Source of the DNA: Candidatus Limnocylindria bacterium
Lineage (GTDB): Bacteria > Chloroflexota > Limnocylindria > QHBO01
Assembly: GCA_038233215.1 (NCBI GenBank)
Contig: JBBSML010000012.1
Span: forward strand, 1,751-65,750
DNA: 64,000 nucleotides
Reading direction: 5' to 3'
Shown here: positions 13,816-31,350 of the stretch, one piece after another
How positions within the stretch are numbered: the first letter of the stretch is position 1
Layout: each line of letters begins with the position of its first letter
Notes under the pieces: model-generated
Databases searched by the model: none
Seen by the model: the letters and a program-made list of their open reading frames with translations, nothing else
Told to the model about the DNA's origin: nothing
Made by a program: the position numbers and the translations under genes

Positions 13816-14747
13816 CGGCGCGGATCCTCGTCGTTGGCCGCCGACCACAGGGCTCGCCAGGCCCGACGCGCTCCGGCCCGCAGTGACAGAGTCATGCCAA
13901 CGGCCCGCAGCCAGAGAAGAAGCAGCGCCAGCACCGAGCCGCCCGGGCCGTACCACTTGCCCAGGTACTGGCGCATCGACCGCGCGTGGAGCGGCCCGAA
14001 GTGGTAGTCCTCCGAGCTGCTCGCGCCACCGATGTGGGTCACCACCGCCGAAGGCACGTAGCGGATCGGCATTCCCGCCGCGGCGGCGCGCCGGCAGAGG
14101 TCGGCATCCTCGAAGTACATGAAGAACCTCTCGTCGAAGCCGCCAAGCTCCCCAAAGGCTTCACGACCGATGGCGAAGCAGGCGCCAGATACCATGTTGG
14201 TATCGATCGTCTCGGTGGCGGTCTCCGCGCTCGCATACTCCCGCGCGAGGCGCGAATGCCGTAGCAATGCGCCAATGCTTGGGACCCGACGTACCCAGTT
14301 TCCAATGGCGTGCAGCCCGAGCATTCGAATGATGAGATCGGATGGCTCTGGAAGGAGCCCGGCAGAACGCTGAATGGAATCGCCGGGTTCGATGAGGCGC
14401 GGGCCGACAACCCCTCGACCATTCCACCTGCGGACTTCACTAAGGATCTCGCCGAGTGAAGTTCCGGAAATGGCCGCGTCGCTATTCAAGAAGACCAGCG
14501 TCGCGCCGTTAGCCGCCCTCGCGCCAATGTTGGCCGCTGCACCGAAGCCGCCGTTCTGAAAACTTTCTAGGACAACGATCCCCCTTGCCTGTAGACCTTT
14601 TAGTCTCTCCACCGTATCGTCGTGAGATGCGTTATCGATGACCACCACTTCGTCGGCCCCTGCCGACAGCGCACTTAGCGCCGCGCTTTCTGTCAGGGCT
14701 GGCGTTCGATAGCTCGCTATGATCGCGCTCGATCGGACTATCTGCAT
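13812..14747 (-). CDS. GT2 family glycosyltransferase (WbbL/rhamnosyltransferase-like)
   Basis: SAIIASYRTP...VVVIDNASHDDT...FFMYFEDADLCRR. Start at MQIVRSS (cat 14745-14747); the longer ORF to 15299 is antisense to the divergent GT2. Confidence 0.7.
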   Translation of the reverse strand: MQIVRSSAIIASYRTPALTESAALSALSAGADEVVVIDNASHDDTVERLKGLQARGIVVLESFQNGGFGAAANIGARAANGATLVFLNSDAAISGTSLGEILSEVRRWNGRGVVGPRLIEPGDSIQRSAGLLPEPSDLIIRMLGLHAIGNWVRRVPSIGALLRHSRLAREYASAETATETIDTNMVSGACFAIGREAFGELGGFDERFFMYFEDADLCRRAAAAGMPIRYVPSAVVTHIGGASSSEDYHFGPLHARSMRQYLGKWYGPGGSVLALLLLWLRAVGMTLSLRAGARRAWRALWSAANDEDPRR

Positions 14748-14774
14748 ACTTTGCTTCGCAGCCGGTAGATCGTT

Positions 14775-15710
14775 TTGATTCTCAGCCATCCCGAACTCTC
14801 CGTCCTCATCGTCAATTACAACTCCACGAACTTGTTGCGGAAATGCTTGGCTTCGCTCACTGCCAGCACCATCGCGGACCGTCTCGAGGTGATCGTGGTG
14901 GACAACGCTTCCGCAGACTTCGACGCGCCGGCCATCGGGATGGAGTTTCCATGGGCGCGCCTGCTGCCGCAGACGACGAACACGACATGGACCGGCGGCA
15001 ACAACATCGCTTTCGATGTATCTTCCGCGCCCCTGGTCCTCCTGCTTAACCCGGACACTGAGGTGGAGCCCGAAGCGCTCGAACGAGCGGTTCAGCATCT
15101 TCGGGACGACGCTTCGCTCGTCGGTTTGGGAGCGATCCTCATCGGACCAGACGGCAACCTCCAGCACTACTACCGACGGCTCCCGACCGTCCTCGATCTC
15201 CCGATCATTTTGTTCGAACCGATCTTCCGCCGCACTAAGCGCGGAAAGCACTACCTCATGCTCGACGAGGCATTTGATCGTCCAACAGTGGTGCCCCAAC
15301 CGCCGGGGGCGTTTCTCCTCTTTCGGCGAGCCGCAGCCCGTTATCCGCTGCTAGATCCCCAGTACTTCAACTTTGTCAGTGATCTTGACCTATGTCGCGA
15401 TCTCAACCGGTCTGGGCAGTTGGTAGTCTTCCCGGATGTCCGGACGTATCACGTGCGCGCGAATGCAGGCGTCGGATCAAAGAACCCTCGGACCCGTCTC
15501 ACACTGGCCCACGACTTCGGATATGGCGTCCGTTACTACTTCAACAAGTTCGCATCGCCGCCCGAACGCCTTCTTGCTAGTTTGGCCGTAATCGTCTATT
15601 GGGGTACGCGAATGGCTCGTCTTGCGATTCGCCGACCAGCGATCGCAAGCGCTGCGGCCATGCAACTTTTTCGCGCGATCCGCGACGAGCCGCCGTCTTA
15701 CCGATCCTGA
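14775..15710 (+). CDS. GT2 family glycosyltransferase
   Basis: TTG start. PELSVLIVNYNSTNLLRKCLASL...VVDNASAD, a classical GT2 N-terminus. Confidence 0.7.
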   Translation: MILSHPELSVLIVNYNSTNLLRKCLASLTASTIADRLEVIVVDNASADFDAPAIGMEFPWARLLPQTTNTTWTGGNNIAFDVSSAPLVLLLNPDTEVEPEALERAVQHLRDDASLVGLGAILIGPDGNLQHYYRRLPTVLDLPIILFEPIFRRTKRGKHYLMLDEAFDRPTVVPQPPGAFLLFRRAAARYPLLDPQYFNFVSDLDLCRDLNRSGQLVVFPDVRTYHVRANAGVGSKNPRTRLTLAHDFGYGVRYYFNKFASPPERLLASLAVIVYWGTRMARLAIRRPAIASAAAMQLFRAIRDEPPSYRS

Positions 15711-15872
15711 TCGGTACATAGTTGACCGCCCGATCGGCAACATGGCTGCGGGCGGCAAAATCAAGGAGCGCGGCAACTCCGCCAACGCCATCGAACTTGC
15801 CGTGGCGGAGCCGGCCAACACCTGCCGGTGCCTTCATACAAGGTGCCTGGAACGATGCACCCACTACCTTGC

Positions 15873-16538
15873 TCACTTCCCCGGCCGCACCAAGACAAAC
15901 CATTCCGCGGCTAACCACTCGTCGCTGATCCCCCTAGTGGCACGACCCAAGACTGACCGTAGGTGACCCAGCACAGTGCTTTGTGGGTAGCCCCATCGCT
16001 CAGGCTTCCACCCCGCCTGTTCAAGAAGCTCACGTAGATTAGACCTGGTGAAAAAGCGGATGTGAGTCGAATCGAATGTGCCTGACGCTTCGGGCCGAAA
16101 TCCGGCACCGACGGCGATCCGTGCGAGAGCCCTGACGTTTCGAATGTTCGGAATTGAGATCAGTAGGCTCCCTTGTGGCTCAACGACTAATTGCCGAAGC
16201 GCCGCTAGCACCGACCCAGGATCAAGGAGGTGCTCCAGGACATCGGCACAAATGATCAAGTCGAATGGACCGGCAACGTCGGCAATTACACCCTCGACTG
16301 TAGCCCTGTGCACCTCATCGAAGCGCTGCGCCGCAAGTTCGCTGCTCTCTTCGTCCGGCTCGATACCGACGATCGTGGCGGCACCACGGGCGCGCAGCCA
16401 TGGAGCGTTGGCTCCAGCTCCGCATCCCACCTCCAGGACAGACGCGTACTCAGTTCCACCCATCCAATCAAGAAGATCCAGTCTCGGTGTCCCGTAGTAC
16501 TCAGTCCTACTTTTATCAGTGGGTGGAGCATCCCTCAC
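15873..16538 (-). CDS. class I SAM-dependent methyltransferase
   Basis: VLEVGCGAGANAPWL...LIICADVLEHLLDP. Confidence 0.7.
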   Translation of the reverse strand: MRDAPPTDKSRTEYYGTPRLDLLDWMGGTEYASVLEVGCGAGANAPWLRARGAATIVGIEPDEESSELAAQRFDEVHRATVEGVIADVAGPFDLIICADVLEHLLDPGSVLAALRQLVVEPQGSLLISIPNIRNVRALARIAVGAGFRPEASGTFDSTHIRFFTRSNLRELLEQAGWKPERWGYPQSTVLGHLRSVLGRATRGISDEWLAAEWFVLVRPGK

Positions 16539-17950
16539 AATTCACCTCCGCGATGTAACGCGTACAACCGCGGCCACGCGACAGCTCCAGATGCAATAGC
16601 CGCAAGCCCGAACCAAACGGATGTGACAATCGGATCGAGGCCAGACGCCAAGAGCAGCGACGATGCGGCAGCGATGGCGAGAGTTACTATCTGCAGCCGG
16701 CCCGGCCCGGTAGGGACATGTGGACGGACGAGGAGCCAGACACCTACGTAATAGATCGCCTGGGACATTGCATATCCGATCCCTGCTCCAGCCAAACCTA
16801 ATGCTTCCACCGCAATGATTGTCCCCGCGATGAGGGTCGAGCCTCCGATGAGTTCAGCGGAGAAATACGAGAACCCGCGGCCGCGTGCTAGTAATCCGAA
16901 CACGAGGACCCACGCTGGTAGACGGACGAGATCTCCGATGAGCTGCCATTTGAGCACCTCGTATGCCGGAACGAATTCCGGCGAGTACAGCAACTCCATC
17001 AAGAAAGGTCCTGTCGCCAATATCATGAGGATGACTGGAATGCCAAGTCCCATGACTAGACGCATGCGGCGTTCGACCAAAGTCGCCAGCTTGAGCGGGC
17101 TGGAGGCCGCGGAGACGCGCGGTAGATAGTCCTGCATCATCATCGAAAGAAAGACCGTGAGATATCCGATCGAGATGGCCGACGCGGCGCGATAGTGGCC
17201 CACGTCTAAGGTGCTCAACATGTTGAGCACAACGATGGGAATGAGAAGTTGAGCCCCTATCCCAGCCAGCTGACTTCCTTGGATAGGGAGACCTATCCAA
17301 AAGAGATGTGCGGCCTCGGGAATAACGTTCGACCCCGACTCTCGCGGCAGCGCATGACCTCTCGAGAGTGCGATCCGCGATAGCGTTATCTGTACTGCGG
17401 CGGTGACGAGTAGCGCAGGCGCCAATCCAGCCCCACCAAAGATGGCGACAAGCGACACTCCTAATGCCGCTGCAGCCACGGATGTTCCTATATTGATTCC
17501 GGCGACGGTTCGGATCCGGTGAAGACCGGTCAGCACGGCAATCTGCACGCCACCCGCCACGGTCAGCAGAAGCGCCGGCGCCAGGACAACCGGCACGAAA
17601 CTCTGCTCGACGGATCCTAGAAGGAGAACCGCGATGGGTTCTCGAAAGACAACGAGCCCTGCGGCTCCAATAGCGCCGCCCCCAAGCCCGACCAGAAGTC
17701 CAGCGCGCTCGACACTGGAAGGACCTCCCTTGCCGTGCGACGCAGCGCTTGCTGTGGCCCGGATTACGCTCGTCCCGAGGCCGACGCTGGCTAGGATGAC
17801 ACCGAGGTTCAGAAGGGACTGCATCAATGCCAACAGGCCCACGCCATTTGCGCCGATGAGGAGCGCGAGCGCCTTCGCAGCAATCACACTCAGTGCGAGT
17901 GTCACGACTGATCCGAAACCTACGATAGCCGTCACTCGTAGAGGAGCCAT
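16535..17950 (-). CDS. polysaccharide/O-unit flippase (MOP superfamily, Wzx-like)
   Basis: About 14 TM helices with a Gly/Ala-rich hydrophobic profile typical of Wzx. Start uncertain (MAPLRV at 17950, or 18034). Confidence 0.6.
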   Translation of the reverse strand: MAPLRVTAIVGFGSVVTLALSVIAAKALALLIGANGVGLLALMQSLLNLGVILASVGLGTSVIRATASAASHGKGGPSSVERAGLLVGLGGGAIGAAGLVVFREPIAVLLLGSVEQSFVPVVLAPALLLTVAGGVQIAVLTGLHRIRTVAGINIGTSVAAAALGVSLVAIFGGAGLAPALLVTAAVQITLSRIALSRGHALPRESGSNVIPEAAHLFWIGLPIQGSQLAGIGAQLLIPIVVLNMLSTLDVGHYRAASAISIGYLTVFLSMMMQDYLPRVSAASSPLKLATLVERRMRLVMGLGIPVILMILATGPFLMELLYSPEFVPAYEVLKWQLIGDLVRLPAWVLVFGLLARGRGFSYFSAELIGGSTLIAGTIIAVEALGLAGAGIGYAMSQAIYYVGVWLLVRPHVPTGPGRLQIVTLAIAAASSLLLASGLDPIVTSVWFGLAAIASGAVAWPRLYALHRGGEL

Positions 17951-18113
17951 GGAGGCGTCAGATTGGCTAAGCTCTTCCGCCTCCCTTGACACCAGCGCAC
18001 GATAGCGCAGTCGTATCTGCTTGCACCTGTCCATTCAGGCCACTGCGGACCGGTAGTGCTGCTAGAACAGCTACCGCCGGTCTAGCCTGCTGCCCCATGA
18101 CTCTGAGGCACCC

Positions 18114-19289
18114 GTGAGCTCAGCCGAGCAGGAAATCATCCCCTTCCACCGCCCCTCCATTGGCGACCGCGAGATCGCGGCCGCCGTGGAGGTGCTCGAG
18201 TCCGGCTGGCTCACTACCGGATCGAAGGCGCATGCGCTGGAGGCGGCGATCGCGAAGCGCATCGGCGTGACGCATGCGCTGGCGGTGAACAGCGCAACCG
18301 CGGCGCTGCATCTGGCGCTCGACGCCTGGGGTATCGGTCCCGGCGACGAGGTCGTCATCCCCACCACCACCTTCACCTCGTGCGGCGAAGTGTGCGCCTA
18401 CCTGGGCGCGCGGGTCGTGCTGGCCGACGTCGGCGAGGACGCGCTCCTGGGTCCGGCCCAGCTCGAAGCCGTCGTGACCGATGCGACCCGCGTCGTCATG
18501 CCGGTCCACTTCGCGGGGCAGGCCGTCGATGTCGCGGCGCTGCGTGGGATCGCCCCGAACGTTCGCTTCCTGGAGGACGCCGCGCACGCCCTGCCGGCCG
18601 ACGTCCGGGGTGTGCCAACCGGGCGGCTCGGGGATGCCGCCGCCTTCAGCTTCTATGCCACCAAGACGATGACCACCGGCGGCGAGGGCGGCATGCTCGT
18701 GACCGATGACGACGCCGTCGCCGAGCGCGCCCGCCTCATGCGCCTGCATGGCATCAGCGCCGACGCCTGGAACCGGTACGGCGCCGGCGGCACATGGGCA
18801 TACGAGGTCGTAGAGGCCGGCTACAAGTACAACCTGACGGATCTCGCTGCGGCTATCGGCCTCGTGCAGCTGGAGCGACTGGATGAGCTGGCCGATGCGC
18901 GCGCCGCCATCGCCGCTCGCTACGACGGTGCCTTCGCGGAATCGGCGCTGCTCGACCCGCCACCGCGCCGAGACGGTGACCGGCACGCGTGGCATCTCTA
19001 CGTCCTTCGCCTCAACCTGGATGCGCTGACCATCGATCGCGCGAAGGTGATCGAGCGGCTGTCGGAGGCAGGCATCGGCGCAGCGGTCCACTTCATCCCG
19101 CTGCACCTGCATCCGCACTACCAGCAGCGCTACGGCTACACGCCCGGCGACTTCCCTGTGGCCGAGGACATCTTCGAGCGCTCCATCTCCTTGCCAATCT
19201 GGCCGGGCATGACCGAAGCCCAGGTGGAGCGCGTCGCCGCGACGCTCCTCGAGATCTGCGAGGCTGCACGCCGCCCCGCCGAGGTCTGA
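18114..19289 (+). CDS. DegT/DnrJ/EryC1/StrS-family PLP-dependent sugar aminotransferase (PglE/WecE-like)
   Basis: IPFHRPSIGDREIAAAVEVLESGWLTTG...FYATKTMTTGGEGGMLVTDD, the canonical family motifs. Confidence 0.85.
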   Translation: MSSAEQEIIPFHRPSIGDREIAAAVEVLESGWLTTGSKAHALEAAIAKRIGVTHALAVNSATAALHLALDAWGIGPGDEVVIPTTTFTSCGEVCAYLGARVVLADVGEDALLGPAQLEAVVTDATRVVMPVHFAGQAVDVAALRGIAPNVRFLEDAAHALPADVRGVPTGRLGDAAAFSFYATKTMTTGGEGGMLVTDDDAVAERARLMRLHGISADAWNRYGAGGTWAYEVVEAGYKYNLTDLAAAIGLVQLERLDELADARAAIAARYDGAFAESALLDPPPRRDGDRHAWHLYVLRLNLDALTIDRAKVIERLSEAGIGAAVHFIPLHLHPHYQQRYGYTPGDFPVAEDIFERSISLPIWPGMTEAQVERVAATLLEICEAARRPAEV

Positions 19290-19338
19290 CCAGCACGGAC
19301 ACTCAAACTTTCACGCATCATGATGCTACAATGCGTGC

Positions 19339-19569
19339 ATGCGCACGACAGTGACCCTAGACGAGGATGTCGCGGCTGCGGTGAAGCGACTCCGGCGAGA
19401 GGACGGGCTTGGCGTCAGCGAGGCGCTGAACCAGATCGCTCGGGCTGGGCTTGCCCACAAGGAAGCGCGAACGCCGTTCAGGCAGCGCACTGTCAAGATG
19501 GGCCTCCTGGTGGACGTTTCCAATGTCGCGGAAGCCATCGACCTGGCCGAAGGTGCCAGCCATCGCTGA
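19339..19569 (+). CDS. vapB: ribbon-helix-helix antitoxin (VapB-like)
   Basis: MRTTVTLDEDVAAAVKRL...; 76 aa; its stop overlaps the vapC ATG (ATGA). Confidence 0.7.
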   Translation: MRTTVTLDEDVAAAVKRLRREDGLGVSEALNQIARAGLAHKEARTPFRQRTVKMGLLVDVSNVAEAIDLAEGASHR

Positions 19570-19997
19570 TGCTGATCGATGTCAATCTGCTGCTCTATGC
19601 GGCGTACGCAGAGACGCCAGAGCACGAGTTGACTCGGGCATGGCTTCAGGAGCAGTTAAACGGACAGAGACGCGTCGGCCTGCCCTGGGAGTCCCTGGTC
19701 GGCTTCGTTCGACTCGCCACGAATCCACGCGTGTCGCCAAGGGCACTCCGACCAGCTGAGGCGTGGGCATTCGTCGAGGACTGGTTGGCGGCGCCGGTCG
19801 TGTGGGTCCCCACCCCGACGGATGAGCACGCGCAGGTGCTCGGGGGCCTCATCGCGAAGCACAGGATTACCGGCAAGCTCGTGCCCGATGCGCACCTGGT
19901 GGCGCTGGCGATGGAGCATGGCCTCGTCGTGTACTCGGCCGACTCTGACTTCGCGCGATTCCCGGAGATCCGCTGGGTCAATCCGCTCGCTGCGTAG
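19569..19997 (+). CDS. vapC: PIN-domain ribonuclease toxin
   Basis: MLIDVNLLLYA...; PIN acidic residues (D5...E...D...D). Coupled to vapB. Confidence 0.75.
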   Translation: MLIDVNLLLYAAYAETPEHELTRAWLQEQLNGQRRVGLPWESLVGFVRLATNPRVSPRALRPAEAWAFVEDWLAAPVVWVPTPTDEHAQVLGGLIAKHRITGKLVPDAHLVALAMEHGLVVYSADSDFARFPEIRWVNPLAA

Positions 19998-20080
19998 ACC
20001 GGGTTTGCGACAAACCCGGTAGTACTGTTGACCCGCGGCACCGGCCGATTCAGCCTACCTCCCACCATGATTGGCGAAAC

Positions 20081-22591
20081 GTGAAGCTTTGGCAGGCCGC
20101 CGTCAAGCGGCTGATTGACGTCGTCCTCGGCGCGTTCGGGCTCGTCGTCCTGATCCCGGTCATGGCACTCGTGGTCGTGGCGGTTGCGGTCGATTCAACG
20201 GGTCCGGTCGTCTACGGCGCGCGGCGCGTTGGCCGGCACAGGCGCGAGTTCACGATGTGGAAATTCCGTTCCATGGCCCGTGGCGCAGACAGGGTCGGTC
20301 CGGCGGTGACCGGTGCCTACGACTTCCGCGTGACGCGCGTCGGCGCCTTTTTGCGGCGAACAAAGTTGGATGAGCTTCCGCAGCTGGTGAACGTGCTGGT
20401 GGGCCAGATGTCGCTGGTGGGCCCGCGTCCTGAAGCGCCGGTCTATGTCGAGCGCTGGACGACCGAGGAACGCGAGATCCTTGCCTTCCGACCGGGCATC
20501 ACCGGACCGACGCAGATCGCCTATATCGACGAAGAGGAGCGCCTCGCCGGCGATCCGAACGCGGTGTACGAGTCCGAGCTGATGCATGTCAAGCTCGCGG
20601 TGGACCTCGACTACGTGCGCCGCTTCAGCCTGCGTGGTGACCTCGGGATCATGTGGAAGACGCTCGTCGGCATCCTGTCGGCCGGCGAACGCCGCACGAA
20701 CCGGCCGCGTCGCCGCTACACCCTGGACGAGCGACTGCGCAGTGCCCGCCTGGGGCCCATCCTGCTCGACGCCTTCCTGGCGGCCATGGCAGCGGCCCTG
20801 GCGGTGGGCCTGCGCATCGATCGCAACAACATCTTCGCCGCGGTTGCCACGTACTGGGTCCTCATCCCCCTGGCGGCCATTGTCCGGCCCGCGGGGTTCC
20901 TGATCGCCGGCGCGTACATGCGGGTCTGGCGGTATCCGACCGTCTCCGATGCAGCGCTGATCGTTGGCTCCTTGGCCGCCGGCTCGCTGATCATGACCAT
21001 CCTCATCTTCGTCGTCATGCAACCGTGGGCATTCGCCGGTTCGGTTGGCTTCCCGCGCAGCGCGCTCATCATCGAGTTCCTGGTCTCGTTCATCGTGCTC
21101 GGCGGAATCCGTTTCGCCTCTCGCATTCGCCAGGAAGGCATTGAGGAGGGGATGCCGCCGGCGAGCGCCGGGCCGCCCCGGCCGGTCTTGATCTATGGTG
21201 CCGGTGAGGCGGGAGCGCTGTTGGTTCGCGAGATGCGGCGCAACCGGTCGCTCCGACTTGAGCCGGTCGCCTTCCTTGACGACGATCCGGCGAAGCGCGG
21301 ACAACGTATCTACGGGGTCGAGGTCGTAGGCGGCGCGAAAGATCTGCCGCTCGTGGCAGCCGAGCGCGAGGTGGCCGAGGTGATCGTCGCCATGCCCCGC
21401 ATCGGCGGCGACCTGCTTCGCCAGATCGTTGCCCTCGCGGAGGCCGCGGGCGTTGCCGTGCGCACCCTCCCCGCCGTCGACGAGCTGCTCGACGAAACCG
21501 TGTCTGTGAACCGAGTGCGGCCGGTCCGCGTCGAGGACCTGCTCAGACGGGAACCAATCGCCATCCCTGAAGGACCGATGCGTTCCCTCGTCGAGGGACG
21601 AACCGTCCTGGTCACCGGCGCGGGCGGCAGCATCGGCTCCGAACTTTGCCGCCAGATCGCGTCGCTCGGCGCTCGCCGAATCGTGCTGTTCGAGCGAGCC
21701 GAGACCCCGCTCTTCTACGTCGACGAGGAGACCCGCCGGCGGTTCCCAGGCGTTGAAGTTGTTGCTGTCGTCGGCGACGTGACCGACGAGGGATCCGTGT
21801 CACGCTGCTTTGAGCGTGAGCAGCCGCAGGTCGTCTTCCATGCCGCCGCCCAGAAGCACGTGCCCCTCTCGGAGGCCAACGTCGCCGCGACGGTCTGGAC
21901 CAACGTTCGAGGGACACGCCTAGTCGCGCAAGCGGCCGTTGATATCGGCGTCGAGGCATTCATCTTCATCAGCACCGACAAGGCGGTCGATCCGTCGTCG
22001 ATCATGGGCGCCACAAAGCGCATCGGCGAAGAGCTGGTGCGGACCGCAGGCGCGTCGGCCGTCGGGCGGTTCGTGGTCGTTCGCTTCGGCAACGTGATGG
22101 GGTCACAGGGATCGGTCCTCGAACTCTTCCGGCAGCAGATCGCCGATGGTGGCCCGGTGACGATCACGCACCCGGACATGACGCGGTACTTCATGACGAT
22201 CCCCGAAGCGGTTCGCCTGATCCTGCACGCTGGCGCCGTTGGGCGTCCCGGCGACGTCCACGTCCTGAACATGGGGCAGCCGATCCGGATCGTCGACCTG
22301 GCGAGCGACCTCATCCGTCTTTCGTCACCGGCGGGGTCTCGCGACATTGCCATCGTCTTCACCGGCCTTCGTCCTGGCGAGAAGCTGGAAGAGACATTGT
22401 TCGGGACGGATGAGGAAGCGCTCGAGACGGATTCGCCGTTCCTGCTGGTGGCGCGCCTTGGTGACGAAGGGCCCCTTGGCTCAACGAACCAATTGGCGGC
22501 GCGCCTCGAAGCACTGGCTGGCGAAGGACGGGATGCCGAGTTGCGCGACCAGCTAGGCGGGACCGCCGCAACGAGCGCCGCCCGAGGATGA
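20081..22591 (+). CDS. fusion protein: N-terminal small phosphoglycosyl transferase (Bac_transf/PglC-WbaP catalytic domain) + 4-TM region + C-terminal CapD/PglF/WbpM-type NAD-dependent nucleotide-sugar 4,6-dehydratase
   Basis: N-terminus: [17 protein letters not shown] (hydrophobic helix), [35 protein letters not shown]-terminus: [44 protein letters not shown]. Confidence 0.8.
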
Positions 22592-24750
22592 TCCGCATCG
22601 TTCCCCGCGTGGCACTCCAACTGTGGATCGTCGGGTTCATCGTCTTCTTCGGCGCCGAAGCCATCCACCTCGAGCCGCCCCTGCGCATCGCGACGCAGGT
22701 CCTGTACGGCTTCCCACTGGCGGCGTGGGCGGTATTCCGCCTGCGTGGGCCATACGACAGGCTCGACATGGCCGTTCTCGGGCTTCTGGTCATCTATGCG
22801 ATCCTGTGTCTCTTCAGCCGCGACCGCACCGAGAGCCTTGGCACGCTGGCCCTGGCAACTGCTTACGCGACGTGGTTCCTGCTCCTCCGTCGCGCAGCCG
22901 ATCTGCGCCCGCAGATTGTGCTCGCGATTGGAACCGGGCTCGCTCTCACCCTGGCCTTCAATGCCTACCTGCAGATCCAGGAAAAGGCGACATGGTTCGC
23001 CACCGTCGGCGCGGCGCCGTTCGAGGGAGTGCTGACCTTTCCATGGGAGTCGGTCAACGCGCTCCCGATGCTCGTGTTGATCGCGATTCCGTTCCTGGCC
23101 TGGGTCATACCTTCGCAGATCAAATCGGTTCTGATGTTCGTCGTGGGATTCAGCGCAGTCGTGGTCGTACCTCTCAGCATGGGGCGCGCCGGATGGCTCG
23201 GCCTCGCGGTCGCCGCGCTGCTGGCACTCCTCCTGCCCTCGACCTTGCAGACCTTCGCGAAGACTCGGTGGCAGACCAAAGCACTCGGCGCAGGAGTGGC
23301 GACGGCCGCGGCAGTCGGTGCTGCGGTGCTTGTCGGACCACGGGCGGTAACCGCCATCGCGGAAAGCGGACGCCTGCTTCTCTGGGAACAGGGTTTGGCG
23401 ATGATCATTGGCTCGCCCCTGATCGGATCCGGACCGGGAACGTACTCGTGGGTGCGGCTGGAAGCAGCGCCGGCTGCCGCCGACCTCCTGGCCGTTCGAC
23501 TCGTCCACAACGTTCCGCTCCAGACGCTCGTCGACGGCGGCCTCGTGCTCGGAACCAGCTTGGTCGGCCTGATGGTCGTATGGGGGCTTGCGCTGCATCG
23601 CCGTTGGCCGGCGTGGAGGGTCGCGGACCGAGTCACGTTGGCCTGTGTTACAGGCTTCGTCGCAGCTCTGATCCTCGATGACTTCAGTTACCTACCGGCG
23701 ATCACGGCCAGCTTCCTGGCCGCGGCGGCGTTTCTGGTCCCCGCCTCAGACACGCGAGCTCTGACGCCCGCGCGTGGCCTGGCAGCACCAGCGCTGCTCA
23801 CGCTGGCAGCACTGATTGCTCTGCCGTATGTCGTCGCCGTCGACGTGGCGCGATCAGCGGCACAGGCAGGTCGAGGAGCCATGGTCGACGGAAGCTATGG
23901 CGCGGCGCGAGCGCACTTTGAAGCAGCGACCCAGGCACACCCCGAAAGCGGCGGCTATTGGCTCGGTCTCGGGATGGCCGCGAGCTATGACGGCGACAGG
24001 ACTGGAGCGATCGACGCGTATCGGCGCGCCGTGGCCGTCGCCCCCGGAGATCCGCGGGGGTACGCGGCGCTCGCAGAGCTGGATAGTGGAGCTGACGCCA
24101 GCGTTCTTCTGGAGCAGGCCGCCGACCGCACCTTGGGTGACCCTCAGTACGCGGTTCGGCTGGGGCTCGAGCTGATGGCCGCCGATCGCCCCCACGAGGC
24201 TACGCACGCGTGGAGCCGCGCTGCCGCGCTTCGACCAGACCTCGTGACCACGCTGCCGTACTGGAATCCTGTGACCATGGGAGCGGTCGCTACCGAGGCC
24301 ATGATCACGATCCACAACGAACCCCGTCCCGCTCCGAGAGAGAACATGGAGAATGCTTGGGACCTCGGACTTGCTCTGGATACACTGCCGGCCGACGCTG
24401 ATCCCGCATGGCGGGCGGTGGATGCCGCCCGGCACGGAGACAACGACACCGCACGTGAACTGGCGGAGGGGTCAGTCACTGCCGCACCCTATGTCGCCCG
24501 CGGCTATCAGGCACTTGCGGCGGTCGCTGCGTTCAGTTGTGACCCGACGACGGTCGAGAACGCCCTCCGGCTGGAGGCCCTGAGTCTCGGCGCATACGAG
24601 CCATTACCGCCTGAACCCCACGTGCGGCGCGAGTTCGTGTACCGCGAAGCCAGCCTCGGGCCGACCCAGCCGCCTGCCGTGGAGCCACTCACTGAGCCAG
24701 AAATGTGGCCGTGGTCGCTGGTTCCACGACCCACGGCCTGCGACGGGTGA
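22588..24750 (+). CDS. O-antigen ligase/oligosaccharyltransferase-like (Wzy_C domain) polytopic membrane protein with C-terminal TPR domain
   Basis: About 12 TM helices. Wzy_C signature GSGPGTYSWVRLEAAPAAADLLAVRLVHNVPLQTLVDGGLVLG. The C-terminal about 300 aa are soluble with TPR-like repeats (AYRRAVAVAPGDPRGYAALAEL...). ATGA overlap with the upstream gene. Confidence 0.65.
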   Translation: MIRIVPRVALQLWIVGFIVFFGAEAIHLEPPLRIATQVLYGFPLAAWAVFRLRGPYDRLDMAVLGLLVIYAILCLFSRDRTESLGTLALATAYATWFLLLRRAADLRPQIVLAIGTGLALTLAFNAYLQIQEKATWFATVGAAPFEGVLTFPWESVNALPMLVLIAIPFLAWVIPSQIKSVLMFVVGFSAVVVVPLSMGRAGWLGLAVAALLALLLPSTLQTFAKTRWQTKALGAGVATAAAVGAAVLVGPRAVTAIAESGRLLLWEQGLAMIIGSPLIGSGPGTYSWVRLEAAPAAADLLAVRLVHNVPLQTLVDGGLVLGTSLVGLMVVWGLALHRRWPAWRVADRVTLACVTGFVAALILDDFSYLPAITASFLAAAAFLVPASDTRALTPARGLAAPALLTLAALIALPYVVAVDVARSAAQAGRGAMVDGSYGAARAHFEAATQAHPESGGYWLGLGMAASYDGDRTGAIDAYRRAVAVAPGDPRGYAALAELDSGADASVLLEQAADRTLGDPQYAVRLGLELMAADRPHEATHAWSRAAALRPDLVTTLPYWNPVTMGAVATEAMITIHNEPRPAPRENMENAWDLGLALDTLPADADPAWRAVDAARHGDNDTARELAEGSVTAAPYVARGYQALAAVAAFSCDPTTVENALRLEALSLGAYEPLPPEPHVRREFVYREASLGPTQPPAVEPLTEPEMWPWSLVPRPTACDG

Positions 24751-26270
24751 GGTCGGCATTGCGCAGGAGGATCCCGGCGAGCTGGGTGGCCATCGCCGCA
24801 CTCTTTGCGCTCGTGGCGTTGCCGCGGTCGGCGATTCCGCTCATCGACGGCGATGTGTATTGGCACATTCGGGCCGGCCTCGAGGTGCTCGACACGGGGC
24901 AAGTCCCGGCGGAAGACAGCTGGAGCCTGGTCGGCGACGGCATGCGGTGGCTGAGCCAGGACTGGCTGAGCAACGTGCTCCTCGGCTTGGGATGGCGCCT
25001 CGGAGAGATCGGGCCATCAGCGCTCTCGCTTGCGTGGTCCTCTCTGGTGGTCGCAGCGCTGGCACTGCTCTGGTGGGCCTTCGGCCTGCGACGCCCAGAG
25101 ACCGGATGGCTGGGGCGCATCGGCTGGCTGACCGTCGGGCTTATCGTCGCTGGCCCCGTCCTTGGCGTCCGCGTGCAGGTCGTCGATCTCACGCTGGCGA
25201 CTGCGGTGGTTCTCTCCTGTTGGGGATACCTGGCACGGCCGTCCATCGGTTGGCTCGTGGCACTTCCGACCATCTCGCTCGCGTGGGCCAATCTGCACGC
25301 AGGCTGGCCGCTCATCTTCATCGTCGGTGGCGCCATCGTCATCGGCGAGGCAGCCGACCGGGTGCTGAAACGCCGACCACCGCACAACATGCTGACATGG
25401 CGGCAGATCGCCCTGCTCGGTGGTGCGCTCGTCGTCTCGATCATGCCGATCGCAGTCAATCCGAGTGGTCTTGAGCTGTATGCCTACCCTCTCGAAACTT
25501 CTTCAATCGCAGCCCATCGCGACTTCATATCGGAATGGCAGTCTCCGGATCCGGGAACCATCGTCGGACAGTTGTTCATCGTCTTCGTCGTGGTGATCGT
25601 CCTGCCGTCGCTCTGGATCGGTCGCCGGACGATGCGTGCCGCTGACGCGCTCGTCATCGCGGGCATGACCGTGATGATCGCCCTCGGTGCGCGGTTTCTG
25701 CTGCTCGCGCCGATCATCGCCGCGACGGCCGGACTCACGCTCGAACCGGCGATCAGCGGGACGGCGCTCGGCCGTCGATTTTCGAGGCCACTGGCACGCC
25801 TCGGTACGGCGCGGAGTGGGGCATTCCTCAACGTGGTGAACGCCGCCCTCATCGGCATCATGGTGCTGGCCGGCCTGGGCGTCGCGTGGGCGCGGGCCAG
25901 CCCTACCGCACAGCGCGAGCTCGTCGCCGACCACATGCCGGTCGGCGCGGTTGACTGGATCATCGCCAATGACCCCGGAGCCCGCCCCTTCAACCAGTAT
26001 TCATGGGGCGGATACCTGGGTCTGCGACGGCCCGACCATCCCATCTACATCGATGGCCGATCCGACATTTACGGCGACCGCCCGATACGCGAGTACGCGA
26101 ACGCGGTCCAGCTCGAGACCGATCCACAGGAACTCTTCGATCGCTACGCGATCGACTACATCCTCTTCCCGCCGAATCAGCCGCTCTCGCAGTGGCTTGA
26201 AGACTCGCCCATCTGGCAGCGTGAATACGTGGACGCCATCGCAGCGGTGTGGATCCGCTTGAATGAATAG
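24705..26270 (+). CDS. uncharacterised polytopic membrane protein, GT-C glycosyltransferase-like (paralog of 27111..28547)
   Basis: N-terminal loop motif PLIDGDVYWH...GQVPAEDSWS. About 11 TM helices. C-terminal soluble domain with YIDGRSDIYGDRPIREY. Shares both motifs with the minus-strand paralog. Confidence 0.5.
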   Translation: MAVVAGSTTHGLRRVRSALRRRIPASWVAIAALFALVALPRSAIPLIDGDVYWHIRAGLEVLDTGQVPAEDSWSLVGDGMRWLSQDWLSNVLLGLGWRLGEIGPSALSLAWSSLVVAALALLWWAFGLRRPETGWLGRIGWLTVGLIVAGPVLGVRVQVVDLTLATAVVLSCWGYLARPSIGWLVALPTISLAWANLHAGWPLIFIVGGAIVIGEAADRVLKRRPPHNMLTWRQIALLGGALVVSIMPIAVNPSGLELYAYPLETSSIAAHRDFISEWQSPDPGTIVGQLFIVFVVVIVLPSLWIGRRTMRAADALVIAGMTVMIALGARFLLLAPIIAATAGLTLEPAISGTALGRRFSRPLARLGTARSGAFLNVVNAALIGIMVLAGLGVAWARASPTAQRELVADHMPVGAVDWIIANDPGARPFNQYSWGGYLGLRRPDHPIYIDGRSDIYGDRPIREYANAVQLETDPQELFDRYAIDYILFPPNQPLSQWLEDSPIWQREYVDAIAAVWIRLNE

Positions 26271-27144
26271 GCCGCGCGTTGCAGAAATGATGAGCTCACC
26301 ACAGCTGCGGCGGCTGCTCAGGGATGGAACTCTTATCGCGGCCATCGTCTTCATCGGCTTCGTATGGTGGCTGGTCACGTTCAACGACTATCAGCACGAT
26401 GCCCGGGCTTACTGGGCGGCTGGCCTGGATAGCCCCTACGCCGATGCACTCGTTGGCGGCTCGGATGCGTACCTCTATTCGCCCGTCTTCGCGCAGCTCG
26501 CCTTTCCGCTGAGCCTGCTGCCATTCGAGGTGTTCCGAGGCATCTGGGCCGTGCTGAATCTCGGCGCCCTGGTCTGGCTGACTGGACCCCGACTCGGTGC
26601 CCTCATGTTGATCATCCCCGGCTCGCCGGTAATCGACGAGGTGGCCACGGGCAATGTCCATCTCCTCATCGCGGCCGCCATCTACGCGAGCCTGTGGAGG
26701 CCGGCCGCATGGGCATTCCCGCTGCTCACGAAGATCACCCCGGGGATCGGCGCCGCCTACCTCCTGGGCGCGCGACGCTGGCGCGCCTTCGCGGAGGCAG
26801 TGGGGGTTTCCGTTGCGTTGAGCGTCATCTCGTTCGCGATCGTCCCCGACCTGTGGTTCGAATGGTTGCGCGTCCTCACCTCGAGCACGAGCGTTCCTGT
26901 TCCTGGCGAGATTGCGATCATTCCGGGCCCGCTTTCGGTCCGCGTGGCAGCTGCTGGCGCGATCGCCCTCGTTGGTGGCATACGCGGCTGGCGGTGGGTG
27001 ATGCCGGTGGCGGCCATGATTGCCCTGCCGGTCCCGTGGTCGTCCGGCCTGAGCCTCCTGGTCGCCGTGGTAGCGCTGTGGCGGTCCGGGCACCTTGTCG
27101 AGCCCAAGGCTCAGGCGGCTGGCGAGGGCGCCCGCGTGACCTGA
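26263..27144 (+). CDS. GT87/DUF2029-family membrane glycosyltransferase (paralog 5)
   Basis: Core ATGNVHLLIAAAIYASLWRPAAWAFPLLTKITPGIGAAYLL, as in paralogs 1-4. Confidence 0.65.
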   Translation: MNRPRVAEMMSSPQLRRLLRDGTLIAAIVFIGFVWWLVTFNDYQHDARAYWAAGLDSPYADALVGGSDAYLYSPVFAQLAFPLSLLPFEVFRGIWAVLNLGALVWLTGPRLGALMLIIPGSPVIDEVATGNVHLLIAAAIYASLWRPAAWAFPLLTKITPGIGAAYLLGARRWRAFAEAVGVSVALSVISFAIVPDLWFEWLRVLTSSTSVPVPGEIAIIPGPLSVRVAAAGAIALVGGIRGWRWVMPVAAMIALPVPWSSGLSLLVAVVALWRSGHLVEPKAQAAGEGARVT

Positions 27145-28547
27145 TCACAGGGGAGAAGGAGGACCGCTCGCTCGTCGCGAAACGCCTCGCACCAGCCTGC
27201 CCGCTCATCCATCGAAGCCAACGGCGCGCTGGGAGGAAGGAGGATCGCCTCAACCCCACGGTCGGCGGCGACCGTTTGCCAGCCGGACTCCGCGCCGCGG
27301 ATGGCCAGGTACTCCTCGAATATCTCGCGCGGGTACATGTCGCTCCGGCCATCGATGAACACTGATCCACCAGAGCCGTACAGGCGGTGGATCGCCCACC
27401 CGCCCCAGTCGTAGTCGACCAATGCCTGAACATCGGGTTCGACGGCGACCAACTGATCCATGGCTGCGCTGGGAAAGACCTCATCTTCGGCCTGGCTGAC
27501 CGCAGGTGGCAGAACGATGACGATCCCGACGACCACCACTGCCGCCAGCCCCAATTCCAGGATGCGGCGTTGGCGCGCGCTGGCGACCGAGCGCGCCCGC
27601 GGCGGCCGAAGGCGAGAGTCGAGCCCAATCGCGAGCATGGGCATCGTCATCACCACCGCAAGCGGGGCGTTACGAACTGCCACGAGGGCACCCAGGGCAC
27701 CGACAACTGCCACTGCCGTGAGCCACCCCGGCGCACCGCGTCGACCAAGGGCAATGACGCCGACGATCAGAAGTGCGACGCCCCATTGCCGCGGGTCAGT
27801 GAAATCGGCCGGCTGCCACTCAGCGATGAAGCTGGTGCCCCAATCGTCCTGGCGCAGGTACCGCAGCGGATAAACGATGCCGTCAAGGCCTGCGGGCGTG
27901 ATCGCAGAGGCAAGTGCGCCGCCAAGGAGCATGCCGACCGCCGTCCATCGCCGTGGCGCAAGCGCGGTTCGACCGAGAAGCGAGAACAGGACGTACACGC
28001 CCACCACTCCAACGCCCACGATCCAGAGACCGTGGAGGTTCGCCCACAGCGCCAGCAACGGAACCACGAGCCATGGCCGGATCCGGTGGTTGACGCGCAG
28101 GCCGAACAGCAGGGCGAGCAAGACAGCAAGAAGCAGCCACGAGAGCACCTGTGGACGTACCGTCGCGAACGAGGCGAGCACGTAGGTGCCGACCACCAGG
28201 AATGGCGTCAGCGCGCGGACTGCGATCCTGTGTCGGTGGAGCATGAACGCGGGGACGAGGAGCGCGCCAGCGGTGGCCAACCCAAAGATGGCAGCTGTGA
28301 CCGGGTAGCCGACGGTCCCCACAAGAGCGGCGATCACCACCTCGCCGAGCCATTCATGAGCGACCCAGGGCCCGTCATAGGCGAAAGAAAACGGATCGTT
28401 CGTCGGCACATCACCGCTGCCGAGAATCAGGCGTCCCGTCTCGAGGTGCCACCAGTAATCTGCGTCGATCGGACCGCGTGCCTCAACCAGCACAATGAAG
28501 AACGCGGCGACGACGGCCGCCAGGATCGTCAGCGGCGAGGGGAGCAT
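27111..28547 (-). CDS. uncharacterised polytopic membrane protein, GT-C glycosyltransferase-like (paralog of 24705..26270)
   Basis: GPIDADYWWHLETGRLILGSGDVPTNDPFSF...; C-terminus FIDGRSDMYPREIFEEY. Confidence 0.5.
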   Translation of the reverse strand: MLPSPLTILAAVVAAFFIVLVEARGPIDADYWWHLETGRLILGSGDVPTNDPFSFAYDGPWVAHEWLGEVVIAALVGTVGYPVTAAIFGLATAGALLVPAFMLHRHRIAVRALTPFLVVGTYVLASFATVRPQVLSWLLLAVLLALLFGLRVNHRIRPWLVVPLLALWANLHGLWIVGVGVVGVYVLFSLLGRTALAPRRWTAVGMLLGGALASAITPAGLDGIVYPLRYLRQDDWGTSFIAEWQPADFTDPRQWGVALLIVGVIALGRRGAPGWLTAVAVVGALGALVAVRNAPLAVVMTMPMLAIGLDSRLRPPRARSVASARQRRILELGLAAVVVVGIVIVLPPAVSQAEDEVFPSAAMDQLVAVEPDVQALVDYDWGGWAIHRLYGSGGSVFIDGRSDMYPREIFEEYLAIRGAESGWQTVAADRGVEAILLPPSAPLASMDERAGWCEAFRDERAVLLLPCDQVTRAPSPAA

Positions 28548-28597: not shown

Positions 28598-30217
28598 ATG
28601 CCCGCGCGCTCGGTGATCTTTCGCGATCTGGTCTCGCTCACCGCGGTGGCGCTCGTCGTGCGCGCGGTGTCTGCGTGGCTTGTGCCGGCGCCGCCGCACG
28701 TCGACGCCGCCTACTACACGATGATCGGCGAGCAGTTGGCGATCGGCAATGGGTTCAACGCCCCGGCCCTGTGGAGCTTTCTCGAGGTCGGGGGCAGGCT
28801 CCCGGCCAACCCGGGTCTGCCGGTCCCAAGCAATGGCCACTGGATGCCACTCACCTCAATCGTGAGCGGCGCCTTCATGACGATCCTGAGTCCTGACTGG
28901 CGGGCCGGCCAGGTGCCCATGGTGCTCCTCTCGACGCTCCTCGTGCCACTGACCTACCTCGCGGCGTGGCAGGTGTCGAGATCTCGGCGCGGCGCCGTTC
29001 TGTCCGCGATCCTCGCCATCACCGCCGGATCGCTTCTCCTCATGTATCCCCTGATCGAGTCCTTCGCCACATTCGGAGTGCTGGGCGCCACAACGCTCCT
29101 TGCCAGCGTGCGAGCAATGGAAACCGCTCGCCCTGGGCCATGGCTCGTGCTGGCTGGTGCTGCCGCGGGAGGCGCGAGCCTGACCCGTATCGACGGCGTG
29201 CTTCTCACGCTGGCTCCTGCAACCGCATGGCTCCTTCTCCGTCCGTTCGGAACCGGGCACCTCGGATCTCCGATTCGGGCGCTGGGTTGGGGATGGCTCA
29301 GCGCAATGGCGTTTCTCGTGGTTGTCATACCTTGGTTGATCCGCGACGTCGCCGTCTTCGGCACAGCGTTTCCCTCCCCGGGAGGCCGCCTGCTCTGGAT
29401 CCGCGATTACAACGAGCACCTGTCGATCAGTCTCAACCTGAGCCTGGAGCGCTACCTGGCGTGGGGACTGCCGGCCATCCTGCTCTCGAAGCTCGCCGCG
29501 CTCGTGGCCGTGCTGGGACAGACCCTCGCGCTGATGGGTGGAGTCTTCGGCCTCTATTTCCTCGCTGGCCTGTGGATGCAGCGTCGTAATCGACGCCTGG
29601 CACCAGTAACGGTGTACCTCATCGCGATGTTCGCGACAATGATCCTGCTCGCCACCGAGCATGCTCCGAAGGGCGCATTTCTTCACACCGCACCCGCGTG
29701 GCTGCCATTTGCCCTGCCGATGGCGGTCTCCGCGGTCGTACCCGCCTCCACCGCCATGGGGCGCGTCTGGCCGTTCCTCCGTCGACCGGCGACGCATCGC
29801 TTCCTCGAGGTGGTCGCCGTTGTCGGAGCGGTGGTGCTGGCCCTGATTGGCGCACTCATCCTTGTTGGCCAGTGGCAGGTCCGTTTCGAGCGCCAGGAAG
29901 CAGCCGCCACCTTTCTGCGAAACGAGGCGGCCCCCGGTGATGTGATCCTGGCCGACGATCCATCAAGCCTGTACCTGCGCACTGGTCTCCATGGGGTCGC
30001 CCCGCCCTTCGACCCGTACCCAGTGATCGAACGAGTGATCGAGTCCTATGGCATCGATTGGGTCGTGGTCACGCTCGGTCCCAAGGAAACAATTGATCCC
30101 CTTGGCTTGTGGGAAGGAGGATCTGCCGCCGACGCGCTCGGCAATGAGGCCACGTTTCTTCCAGACGCACCAGCGTTCGAGGCCGACGGTGTGCGGGTCT
30201 TCAAAGTCGATCCGTAG
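28598..30217 (+). CDS. ArnT/PMT-type (GT39/GT83-like) polyprenyl-phosphate-sugar dependent GT-C glycosyltransferase
   Basis: First loop PPHVDAAYYTMIGEQLAIGNGF; 10+ TM helices; C-terminal soluble domain. Confidence 0.6.
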   Translation: MPARSVIFRDLVSLTAVALVVRAVSAWLVPAPPHVDAAYYTMIGEQLAIGNGFNAPALWSFLEVGGRLPANPGLPVPSNGHWMPLTSIVSGAFMTILSPDWRAGQVPMVLLSTLLVPLTYLAAWQVSRSRRGAVLSAILAITAGSLLLMYPLIESFATFGVLGATTLLASVRAMETARPGPWLVLAGAAAGGASLTRIDGVLLTLAPATAWLLLRPFGTGHLGSPIRALGWGWLSAMAFLVVVIPWLIRDVAVFGTAFPSPGGRLLWIRDYNEHLSISLNLSLERYLAWGLPAILLSKLAALVAVLGQTLALMGGVFGLYFLAGLWMQRRNRRLAPVTVYLIAMFATMILLATEHAPKGAFLHTAPAWLPFALPMAVSAVVPASTAMGRVWPFLRRPATHRFLEVVAVVGAVVLALIGALILVGQWQVRFERQEAAATFLRNEAAPGDVILADDPSSLYLRTGLHGVAPPFDPYPVIERVIESYGIDWVVVTLGPKETIDPLGLWEGGSAADALGNEATFLPDAPAFEADGVRVFKVDP

Positions 30218-30317
30218 TACTTCCGAGGCTCAAAGTACTGTTGCCCGGATGCACTCGGGGCCGACAGCATGGACGCGACGTCCGGTACTACGCCGGACAC
30301 GGTACTCCAGGGACCTT

Positions 30318-31337: not shown

Positions 31338-31350
31338 GGAGGAGAGCCTA

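Follow-up and report, generated by a model that had tools for sequence, protein, structure and literature searches.

A WaaL-fold glycan transferase with a predicted external TPR domain in a Limnocylindria glycan island beside a Flp/tad locus: a candidate protein O-glycosylation system

Introduction

Among the described systems that resemble the locus treated here are the surface (S-) layer glycosylation clusters of monoderm bacteria. In these, WsfB of Paenibacillus alvei joins a Wzy_C domain to a C-terminal tetratricopeptide repeat (TPR) domain, while in Geobacillus stearothermophilus WsaB is accompanied by a separate TPR protein, WsaA; both clusters also carry rmlABCD, a methyltransferase and a phosphoglycosyl transferase (PGT) (PMC2943079). 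Here we analyzed a comparable locus in a stretch of 64,000 nt (the window) from Candidatus Limnocylindria contig JBBSML010000012.1 (GCA_038233215.1, positions 1,751 to 65,750), part of a metagenome-assembled genome (MAG) of the Chloroflexota class Limnocylindria. In the region 18114-24750, an earlier sequence-only reading had seen a DegT aminotransferase, a PGT fused to a sugar dehydratase and a WaaL/PglL-type ligase with a TPR domain, and had proposed a protein O-glycosylation system with the pilin of a nearby pilus locus as substrate. Protein O-glycosylation is also, in our analysis, the single most likely reading of the locus, partly supported and not established.

Other enzymes are relevant to the comparison. 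The domains PglL_A and Wzy_C_2 mark the PglL and PglS classes of O-oligosaccharyltransferases (O-OTases) (PMC12645811). In the O-antigen ligase WaaL, two Arg bind undecaprenyl diphosphate (Und-PP) and a His activates the acceptor, while related inverting polymerases have Asp or Glu at the position of this His (PMC10920833). TacL, the lipoteichoic acid ligase of pneumococci, is a Wzy_C-type enzyme of a monoderm that moves an Und-PP-linked chain, with the free-amine sugar 2-acetamido-4-amino-2,4,6-trideoxygalactose (AATGal) at its reducing end, to an acceptor other than lipid A (PMC5727136), and TfpW, the pilin arabinosyltransferase of Pseudomonas aeruginosa, is a GT-C enzyme whose TPR domain lies in the periplasm (bioRxiv 10.1101/2020.04.19.049825). 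As for the host phylum, Chloroflexota are reported to have no outer membrane, about a third of their genomes carry Tad pili, and a type IV-like filament of the phylum shows O-glycan-like densities whose enzyme was not assigned (PMC12488501). No characterized protein- or envelope-glycosylation machinery of Chloroflexota came up in our literature search.

Results

The Wzy_C-TPR protein belongs to the WaaL superfamily

The gene at 22588..24750 (+) encodes a protein of 720 aa which, by its domain content, predicted fold and conserved residues, belongs to the WaaL/O-antigen-ligase superfamily (Wzy_C, CAZy GT121-like). The Wzy_C domain, which the sequence-only reading had left to a hidden Markov model check, was matched by Pfam at residues 189-322 with 37.8 bits, above the gathering score of 31.7, and most homologues are also annotated with PF04932. 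TPR matches were obtained at residues 427-498. Searched against PDB sequences, the full-length profile returned TPR proteins only and the membrane-domain profile nothing meaningful, with no solved WaaL among its matches. Because sequence profiles did not reach WaaL, the comparison had to be made at the level of the fold. The AlphaFold2 model, computed on 35 homologues (pLDDT 90.9, pTM 0.89), has 13 transmembrane (TM) helices, a TPR domain of ~140 residues (~420-560), a further helical region (561-663) and a tail of 57 residues (664-720) that is conserved and confidently predicted, despite having little secondary structure. The predicted fold is GT-C(B), with the 12-TM core and the long external loop between TM9 and TM10 that are common to the WaaL proteins of Cupriavidus metallidurans (7TPG/7TPJ) and Escherichia coli (CAZy GT121). 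Unlike these, the window protein has a 13th helix and an external TPR/tail module of 300 residues, and it has no significant sequence match to a solved WaaL.

The Arg/Arg/His constellation of WaaL was also found, on the external face of the model. R200 and R262 are invariant throughout the clade of the window protein, with H307 near-invariant, although a sister subfamily, described below, carries Asp at this third site. The local motifs, SxGR200A, GR262xxLW and H307-N-x7-D-G-G, can be aligned with TR215A, AR288LAMY and H338-N-x4-E-A-G of E. coli WaaL, R262 having been placed against R288 by an hhalign comparison of the family with E. coli WaaL that was used solely for this purpose (a local match of 22 columns, E 0.16). 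The best-conserved stretches of the protein are its predicted outward-facing loops. Loop charges obey the positive-inside rule (9 K/R among 40 residues inside vs 5 among 108 outside), which, together with the 13 helices, predicts that the C-terminal 300 residues lie outside the cell, so that the C-terminal TPR domain of the sequence-only reading reappears here in an extracytoplasmic position. These 300 residues hold two Cys only, C651 and C718, both near-invariant, and the pair would fit an extracytoplasmic disulfide.

The closest homologue is 94% identical, and the best relatives come from Limnocylindria/Chloroflexota MAGs. A family search with a profile of the membrane domain, clustered at 50% identity, gave at least 272 clusters at E <= 1e-30 and 2,651 at E <= 1e-10. 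Since nearly all members are 710-790 aa long, the ligase-plus-extension architecture defines a large family; all members are from metagenomes and every named one is from Chloroflexota. At one of the related loci (designated by L numbers in the following), L014, the first 224 residues of the ligase are 70-74% identical and the remainder only ~44%, a mosaic that suggests diversifying selection or recombination in the external part.

Early steps and the first sugar

The early steps have the Pgl-like character that was proposed from sequence, and Pfam matches were obtained for all three proteins of the region. DegT (18114..19289, +; PF01041, E 4e-112) is a pyridoxal phosphate-dependent sugar aminotransferase, corresponding to the PglE step, and its closest solved relatives are ArnB 8SNG/1MDO (E 1e-85 to 1e-82). 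It is 72-84% identical in syntenic loci and 39% in L004, and fragmented in L014. The fusion (20081..22591, +; 836 aa) combines a small monotopic, PglC-like PGT (residues 1-200; Bac_transf at 9-199, E 2e-55) with a membrane-anchored, PglF-like UDP-GlcNAc 4,6-dehydratase (~225-836; CoA_binding_3 at 301-464, E 6e-12, and Polysacc_synt_2 at 509-786, E 1e-102). The top PDB match of the dehydratase half is Campylobacter jejuni PglF/WlaL (5BJU, E 1.6e-70), vs ~1e-38 for inverting dehydratases of the CapD/CapE/FlaA1 type, which assigns it to the retaining PglF type of the di-N-acetylbacillosamine (diNAcBac) module; other matches of the fusion were WbaP (E 1e-22) and PglC (8G1N, E 4e-18).

All three activities are thus present, although they are not strictly consecutive as had been described, since a toxin-antitoxin pair that had been overlooked (19339..19997, +) lies between DegT and the fusion. 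A vapB-like ORF of 76 aa, starting MRTTVTLDEDV (19339-19569), terminates at the start of a PIN toxin (~19566-19997; PIN domain E 3e-9, at residues 84-215 of ORF 19320-19997). The pair is an insertion within the operon and no part of the glycan pathway. In L001, a different PIN/PhdYeFM pair occupies the same DegT/fusion intergenic spot on the opposite strand (6553-7250, -), which suggests a recurrent insertion site within the operon.

An N-acetyltransferase, which the sequence-only reading had noted as absent, was indeed not detected across the 64 kb by tblastn with the PglD-like protein of L004 (best E 0.23), nor was there a Hexapep match among the scanned window ORFs. Because of this absence the free C4 amine is probably kept, and the enzymes encoded suggest a 2-acetamido-4-amino-2,4,6-trideoxyhexose as the first sugar. 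Moreover, the GLLLP loop, a fingerprint of PGTs that use UDP-diNAcBac (PMC10186338), is not present, by inspection, between KFRSM and DELPQ of the PGT. The canonical diNAcBac pathway was rejected, as PglD and the GLLLP motif are both absent. The stereochemistry of the sugar cannot be read from sequence; it is probably of the Bac2Ac4N or the FucNAc4N/AATGal type, both of which are known PGT substrates (PMC11257628). In L004, separate PglF- and PglC-like genes replace the fusion, and an unfused full bacillosamine set stands beside the WaaL-TPR gene: a PglF-like protein (634 aa), DegT, a PglD-like acetyltransferase and a PglC-like protein (218 aa), with coordinates 7274-7924 (-) and 4217-4873 (-) for this set. 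The first sugar is therefore probably diNAcBac in L004 and a non-acetylated amine in the lineage of the window.

Conservation of the gene order

A search for related loci with a narrow alignment gave 10 genome loci only. DegT, the fusion and the Wzy_C-TPR gene are found together in most related Chloroflexota contigs that are long enough, including L001, L003, L005, L008, L009, L010, L011, L021 and L022, while in L020 the PGT domain was undetected. This arrangement is not a product of chance, to judge from its recurrence. The conserved order runs from DegT, the fusion and the ligase through a GT87/GTCx/PMT_2-like set, a HisKA_3 histidine kinase and a LuxR-type regulator to Flp, CpaB, CpaE and CpaF, with "GTCx1" and "GTCx2" being labels coined in this analysis for two paralogous polytopic membrane proteins. 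It was found in full, through Flp/tad, in eight loci (L001, L003, L008, L010, L011, L015, L021 and L022); in L005 and L020 it could be traced no further than the kinase and regulator genes. The LuxR protein is ~77-92% identical across related loci, whereas the upstream block of glycosyltransferases, methyltransferases and Wzx varies from locus to locus. L010 (JAICUY010000011.1) is labelled Steroidobacteraceae (Gammaproteobacteria), yet its DegT, fusion, LuxR and CpaE/F are 74-90% identical to those of the window, and it is probably mis-binned.

In the window, the kinase and response regulator genes (30048..32085, +; Pfam) separate the glycan island from the pilus locus. The latter begins with a Flp prepilin of 60 aa with a G/QTLVEY processing motif (32422..32604, +), a candidate acceptor only, followed by CpaB, CpaE, CpaF, TadB, TadC and TadE/G-like genes; PF04964 (Flp_Fap) was found on Flp orthologues. 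No secretin was found in this tad locus. The gene at 40681-41769 (+) encodes a TadE-like pseudopilin of 362 aa with a weak PASTA match (E 4e-4, below threshold), an unusual combination.

A proposed pathway

We tentatively propose, from sequence and by analogy, that the locus encodes the initiation and transfer core of an Und-PP-linked oligosaccharide pathway whose glycan is passed en bloc to at least one exported protein of the cell surface. The PglF-like half of the fusion would convert UDP-GlcNAc into a 4-keto-6-deoxy sugar, DegT would aminate C4 to give a product that probably keeps its free amine, and the PglC-like half of the fusion would load this sugar onto undecaprenyl phosphate. Cytoplasmic GT2 enzymes, dTDP-rhamnose and methyltransferases may then extend and decorate the glycan, and a Wzx-like protein would flip it across the membrane. 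This flippase gene lies just upstream, as had been noted, and is divergent from DegT (16535..18034, -; Polysacc_synt_3, E 2.2e-11; ~14 hydrophobic segments; a WzxE-like NF011679 match, E 1e-11, is under the cut-off of that model). The WaaL-fold enzyme would finally transfer the glycan, en bloc and unpolymerized, to an external hydroxyl acceptor, R200 and R262 holding the diphosphate and H307 activating the acceptor. The likely acceptor would be Ser, Thr or Tyr of exported surface proteins (one or several) that the extracytoplasmic TPR would recruit. The GT87 and GT-C-like enzymes of the same transcript may then add to the glycan on the outside, with polyprenyl-phosphate sugars as donors. Single-unit transfer is favored over polymerization because no second Wzy_C protein, Wzz/polysaccharide co-polymerase (PCP) or LytR-CpsA-Psr (LCP) protein was found among the scanned ORFs of the window, and because of the WaaL-type His. 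Since the phylum is reported to have no outer membrane, a lipid A-core is an unlikely acceptor, and we rejected a true lipopolysaccharide WaaL on the same ground of host phylum (Chloroflexota relatives, no secretin, no outer membrane reported).

A protein acceptor has its nearest precedents in TPR-bearing transferases. The WsfB and WsaB+WsaA clusters, like the window, belong to monoderm hosts and pair a Wzy_C enzyme with TPR; rmlABCD, glycosyltransferases, a methyltransferase and a monotopic PGT are common to both, and L003 has in addition an Asn-synthase homologue, like wsfA (PMC2943079). WsfB is likened to the window protein by its described architecture, Wzy_C followed by a C-terminal TPR. 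The differences are that the WsfB clusters start with Gal and the window with a PglF/DegT-derived amino sugar, that no S-layer gene was recognized in the window, that the ligase is coupled to GT87/GT-C-like genes, and that the phylum is Chloroflexota. TfpW and the eukaryotic TMTC O-mannosyltransferases are likewise polytopic, with an extracytoplasmic or lumenal TPR and protein acceptors, as proposed for the window enzyme. However, they are GT-C(A) enzymes using polyprenyl-monophosphate sugars, while the window enzyme is predicted to have a WaaL fold and to use a diphosphate-linked glycan, so that the likeness is one of domain logic and not of catalytic-domain homology. OGT, like TMTC, combines TPR repeats with a protein acceptor.

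With the PglF-PglE-PglD-PglC systems of Campylobacter and Neisseria and the O-OTases PglL of Neisseria and PglS of Acinetobacter, the window shares a 4,6-dehydratase, a C4 aminotransferase, a small monotopic PGT, a Wzx-type flippase, a WaaL-superfamily transferase and the lack of a polymerase. It differs from them in having no PglD and no GLLLP, in the fusion of the PGT to the dehydratase, in the additional TM13 and TPR, and in its monoderm host.

Alternative functions and acceptors of the ligase

A number of observations weigh against the proposal of a protein acceptor, and several of them favor other functions. The sequence does not tell whether the acceptor is a protein, a glycolipid or a wall polymer. 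For the protein O-glycosylation system first suggested, the WsfB precedent and the predicted extracytoplasmic TPR speak in favor. Similarity to WaaL is weak, as the profile searches and the hhalign match show. PglL_A and Wzy_C_2 are absent from the protein, in which only Wzy_C and TPR families were found at E <= 0.01, and the enzyme is therefore outside the PglL/PglS classes as currently defined. The sequence-only reading had likened it to PglL/PilO, which this does not support; nor does its gene lie beside a pilin gene. TPR domains, moreover, also scaffold polysaccharide export.

The ligase gene is also the fastest-evolving of the locus, its product being 37-58% identical in the related loci vs 72-90% for DegT, the fusion, LuxR and CpaE/F. 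Such fast divergence is typical of glycan-specific Wzy/WaaL enzymes and less so of relaxed O-OTases, and divergence far beyond that of the conserved initiating enzymes is what would be expected of a reader of variable repeat units, i.e., of a Wzy-type polymerase that joins flipped repeat units into a surface polysaccharide, its TPR serving as a built-in chain-length or export scaffold and its polymer being attached by an enzyme encoded elsewhere in the genome. The protein is, in fact, the sole Wzy_C-like one beside the Wzx flippase among the scanned ORFs, and the Pfam family Wzy_C also covers polymerases. A sister subfamily of the same length and architecture bears on this point as well. In its members, 67 of the 115 sampled from the wider family (P0125, P0128 and others), Asp in an RHPDS motif takes the place of H307, as in inverting polymerases and SEDS proteins (PMC10920833). 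This subfamily is also without C651 and may differ in acceptor or chemistry; because of it, His/Asp is no clean discriminator between ligases and polymerases. The window protein and its whole clade, on the other hand, keep the WaaL-type His-Asn motif and both Arg, so that the Asp/Glu of a polymerase is not found at the His position, and no Wzz/PCP or LCP partner was found among the scanned ORFs of the window or in about ten related loci with called genes. We consider a polymerase improbable.

A different acceptor is suggested by the most constant neighbors of the ligase, which are GT87 and GT-C-like membrane proteins. Directly downstream of the ligase in the window are GTCx1 (24747..26270, +), an uncharacterized polytopic membrane protein that is GT-C-like by inference and ~25% identical to GTCx2, and a GT87-family membrane glycosyltransferase (26263..27144, +; PF09594, E 1.9e-15), followed by the GTCx1 paralogue GTCx2 (27111..28547, -), likewise uncharacterized, and a PMT_2/ArnT-like GT-C membrane glycosyltransferase (28598..30217, +), assigned from orthologue annotation and synteny. 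As read from the sequence, the stop and start codons overlap between fusion and ligase (ATGA) and between ligase and GTCx1 (GTGA), and GTCx1 and GT87 overlap by 8 nt; the fusion, ligase, GTCx1 and GT87 genes are therefore very probably co-translated. Wherever the contig of a related locus continues beyond the ligase, a GT87 gene comes next or a few genes further on. GT87 is a family of polyprenol-phosphate-sugar-dependent enzymes. The GTCx proteins (~480-520 aa) have D-x-D and W-H motifs in common and no Pfam, NCBIfam or PDB match, and the GTCx2 profile had none in PDB or Pfam either; GTCx2 has 398 homologues, from Chloroflexota/Limnocylindria, all "hypothetical" where named, and a precomputed Pfam match in one cluster only. 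D27, D29, W32, H33, N169, H171, E242 and W243 of GTCx2 are invariant and C452 and C466 near-invariant. From these features, the GTCx proteins look like an undescribed GT-C-type family. The window copy of the PMT_2-like gene is without a Pfam match, and its orthologues, at 50-61% identity, are annotated with PF13231 (PMT_2, L003) or a weak PF02366 (PMT, L022).

Such constant partners fit lipoglycan or wall-glycopolymer assembly at least as well as protein glycosylation. In distant members of the family (L017-L019), GT87, GTCx and PMT_2 are kept and no PGT, DegT or Flp was found on those short contigs. The ligase might attach the flipped Und-PP-glycan to a glycolipid of the membrane or to another envelope glycopolymer, giving a lipoglycan or a secondary wall polymer that the GT87, GTCx and PMT_2-like enzymes would extend outside, in analogy with pneumococcal TacL and with the assembly of lipomannan and lipoarabinomannan in actinobacteria. 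For a Wzy_C ligase that works in a monoderm, on a chain whose reducing end is AATGal, TacL is the precedent (PMC5727136), and an ArnB-like DegT without an acetyltransferase is compatible with a free-amine, AATGal-like first sugar; the substrate of TacL, unlike that proposed for the window, is built by a separate polymerase. The rhamnose genes and methyltransferases of the locus also agree with such an envelope polymer. Chloroflexus walls are reported to contain methylated sugars and rhamnose. Against this stands the extracellular module of 300 aa, TPR and tail, which has no known role in TacL or WaaL, and we know of no TPR domain in TacL itself. WsfB (PMC2943079) and TfpW (bioRxiv 10.1101/2020.04.19.049825) are both TPR-associated glycosyltransferases with protein acceptors, and the conserved position of Flp/tad, as well as the adjacency of Flp in L014, would be left unexplained. 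A ligase for a non-protein acceptor is a serious, if somewhat less likely, alternative.

The pilin link that had been drawn from a Flp gene about 8 kb downstream was borne out as to position, the gene lying 7.7 kb from the ligase, and the evidence for a link is the conserved synteny. In a narrower version of the protein O-glycosylation proposal, the enzyme would be an O-OTase dedicated to the pilin and glycosylate Flp at a conserved Thr-Ser/Thr pair near its C-terminus, like TfpO and TfpM. The order island-kinase-regulator-Flp-tad is conserved in at least eight related loci. L014 shows an independent arrangement, in which a Flp gene precedes DegT by ~150 bp, at 3.8 kb from the ligase, and the 10 kb downstream contain no tad genes. 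The C-terminus of Flp, FQNVGT[ST]L, is kept in 7 loci as well as in the window, where the protein ends ...FQNVGTSLK, and known pilin-specific O-OTases target the C-terminal residue of the pilin (PMC12645811). The T-[ST] pair of Flp, however, sits 2-4 residues from the end and is not the last residue, the target of TfpO and TfpM. The ligase is separated from Flp by eight genes, unlike tfpO/PilO and tfpM, which lie immediately beside the gene of their pilin substrate. Common descent can explain the adjacency, since the flanking proteins (DegT, fusion, LuxR, CpaE/F) of the syntenic loci, at 72-90% identity to the window, are those of fairly close relatives. Neither Flp nor tad genes lie within 10 kb in L004, no tad genes are seen on the shorter contigs of the distant members, and for a pilin of 40 aa a large TPR together with four to six additional membrane glycosyltransferases would seem too much. 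The adjacency thus stood, while its functional meaning was weakened by the intervening genes and the closeness of the relatives, and dedication to the pilin is unlikely.

Other genes of the glycan island

The genes discussed so far are the center of a glycan island of ~28 kb in a window with a G+C content of ~65%. Upstream of them are a polytopic spermidine-synthase-like protein, two GT87 genes, rmlABDC, two methyltransferases and three GT2 genes. The genes rmlA, rmlB, rmlD and rmlC (8849..12120, +), for dTDP-L-rhamnose synthesis, were identified with Pfam (NTP_transferase, E 1e-55; GDP_Man_Dehyd/Epimerase, E 1e-70; RmlD_sub_bind, E 4e-65; dTDP_sugar_isom, E 5e-66); their limits are those of the listed ORFs, the real starts of rmlD and rmlC lying later. 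They are followed by a variable glycan-tailoring block (12107..16538; Pfam) of two S-adenosylmethionine-dependent methyltransferases and three GT2 glycosyltransferases. As NCBIfam matches on the GT2s and methyltransferases were generic only, the composition of the glycan past the first sugar and rhamnose could not be read. The stretch at 14-18 kb, with GT2b, GT2c, a methyltransferase and Wzx, is lower in G+C (0.59-0.60) than its flanks (0.66-0.69). This low-G+C block (14000-18000) is also the segment that varies among related loci, like the strain-specific centers of O-antigen and slg clusters. A promoter/terminator scan of 17.9-32.9 kb was at background level and therefore does not define the operon structure.

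The spermidine-synthase-like gene is an ORF at 1720-3924 (+) that encodes 734 aa with ~11 TM segments and the spermidine-synthase-like domain at the C-terminus (NF037959, E 8e-13). A homologue overlaps the start of the WaaL-TPR gene in L017 (6379-8412) and L018 (3001-5034), and another was found in L005 (1-1668); the protein may be part of the same envelope system as the WaaL-TPR enzyme. The ORF at 7619-8746 (+; 375 aa), with an Arg/Pro-rich translation and no hydrophobic segments, was discarded as probably an off-frame artifact of high G+C; the true gene there may be ORF 7587-8471, which overlaps it.

Discussion

All the types of parts found at this locus were known before, and what is described here is a prediction from genome mining and no new principle. 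New, nevertheless, is a large, Chloroflexota-specific family of WaaL-fold proteins that have a 13th helix, a TPR on the outside and, in the tail, a conserved pair of Cys. Also new are the coupling of this family to a PglC::PglF fusion, its coupling to GT87 and GTCx genes, and its conserved position beside Tad/Flp.

In its most detailed form, the H-type WaaL-TPR enzyme would be the missing O-OTase of Chloroflexota type IV filaments, placing a glycan that is initiated with a free-amine sugar, contains rhamnose and is methylated on the conserved C-terminal Thr-Ser/Thr of the 40-residue Flp, and possibly on other surface proteins, where the coupled GT87 and GTCx would extend it extracellularly. 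We give this chain of steps little credence as a whole. We know of no bacterial O-OTase system in which the glycan is elaborated outside the cytoplasm after its transfer.

At the broader level of the family, these proteins are a concrete candidate for the unassigned enzyme behind the O-glycan-like densities on the type IV-like filament of Chloroflexota. Should the window protein be a true O-OTase, WsfB-type transferases with a TPR domain would be represented in a deep-branching monoderm phylum as well, with a reducing-end sugar predicted to differ from that of diNAcBac systems. If it is instead a ligase of lipoglycans or wall polymers, then, together with GT87 and GTCx, it would outline a new pathway for an envelope glycoconjugate.

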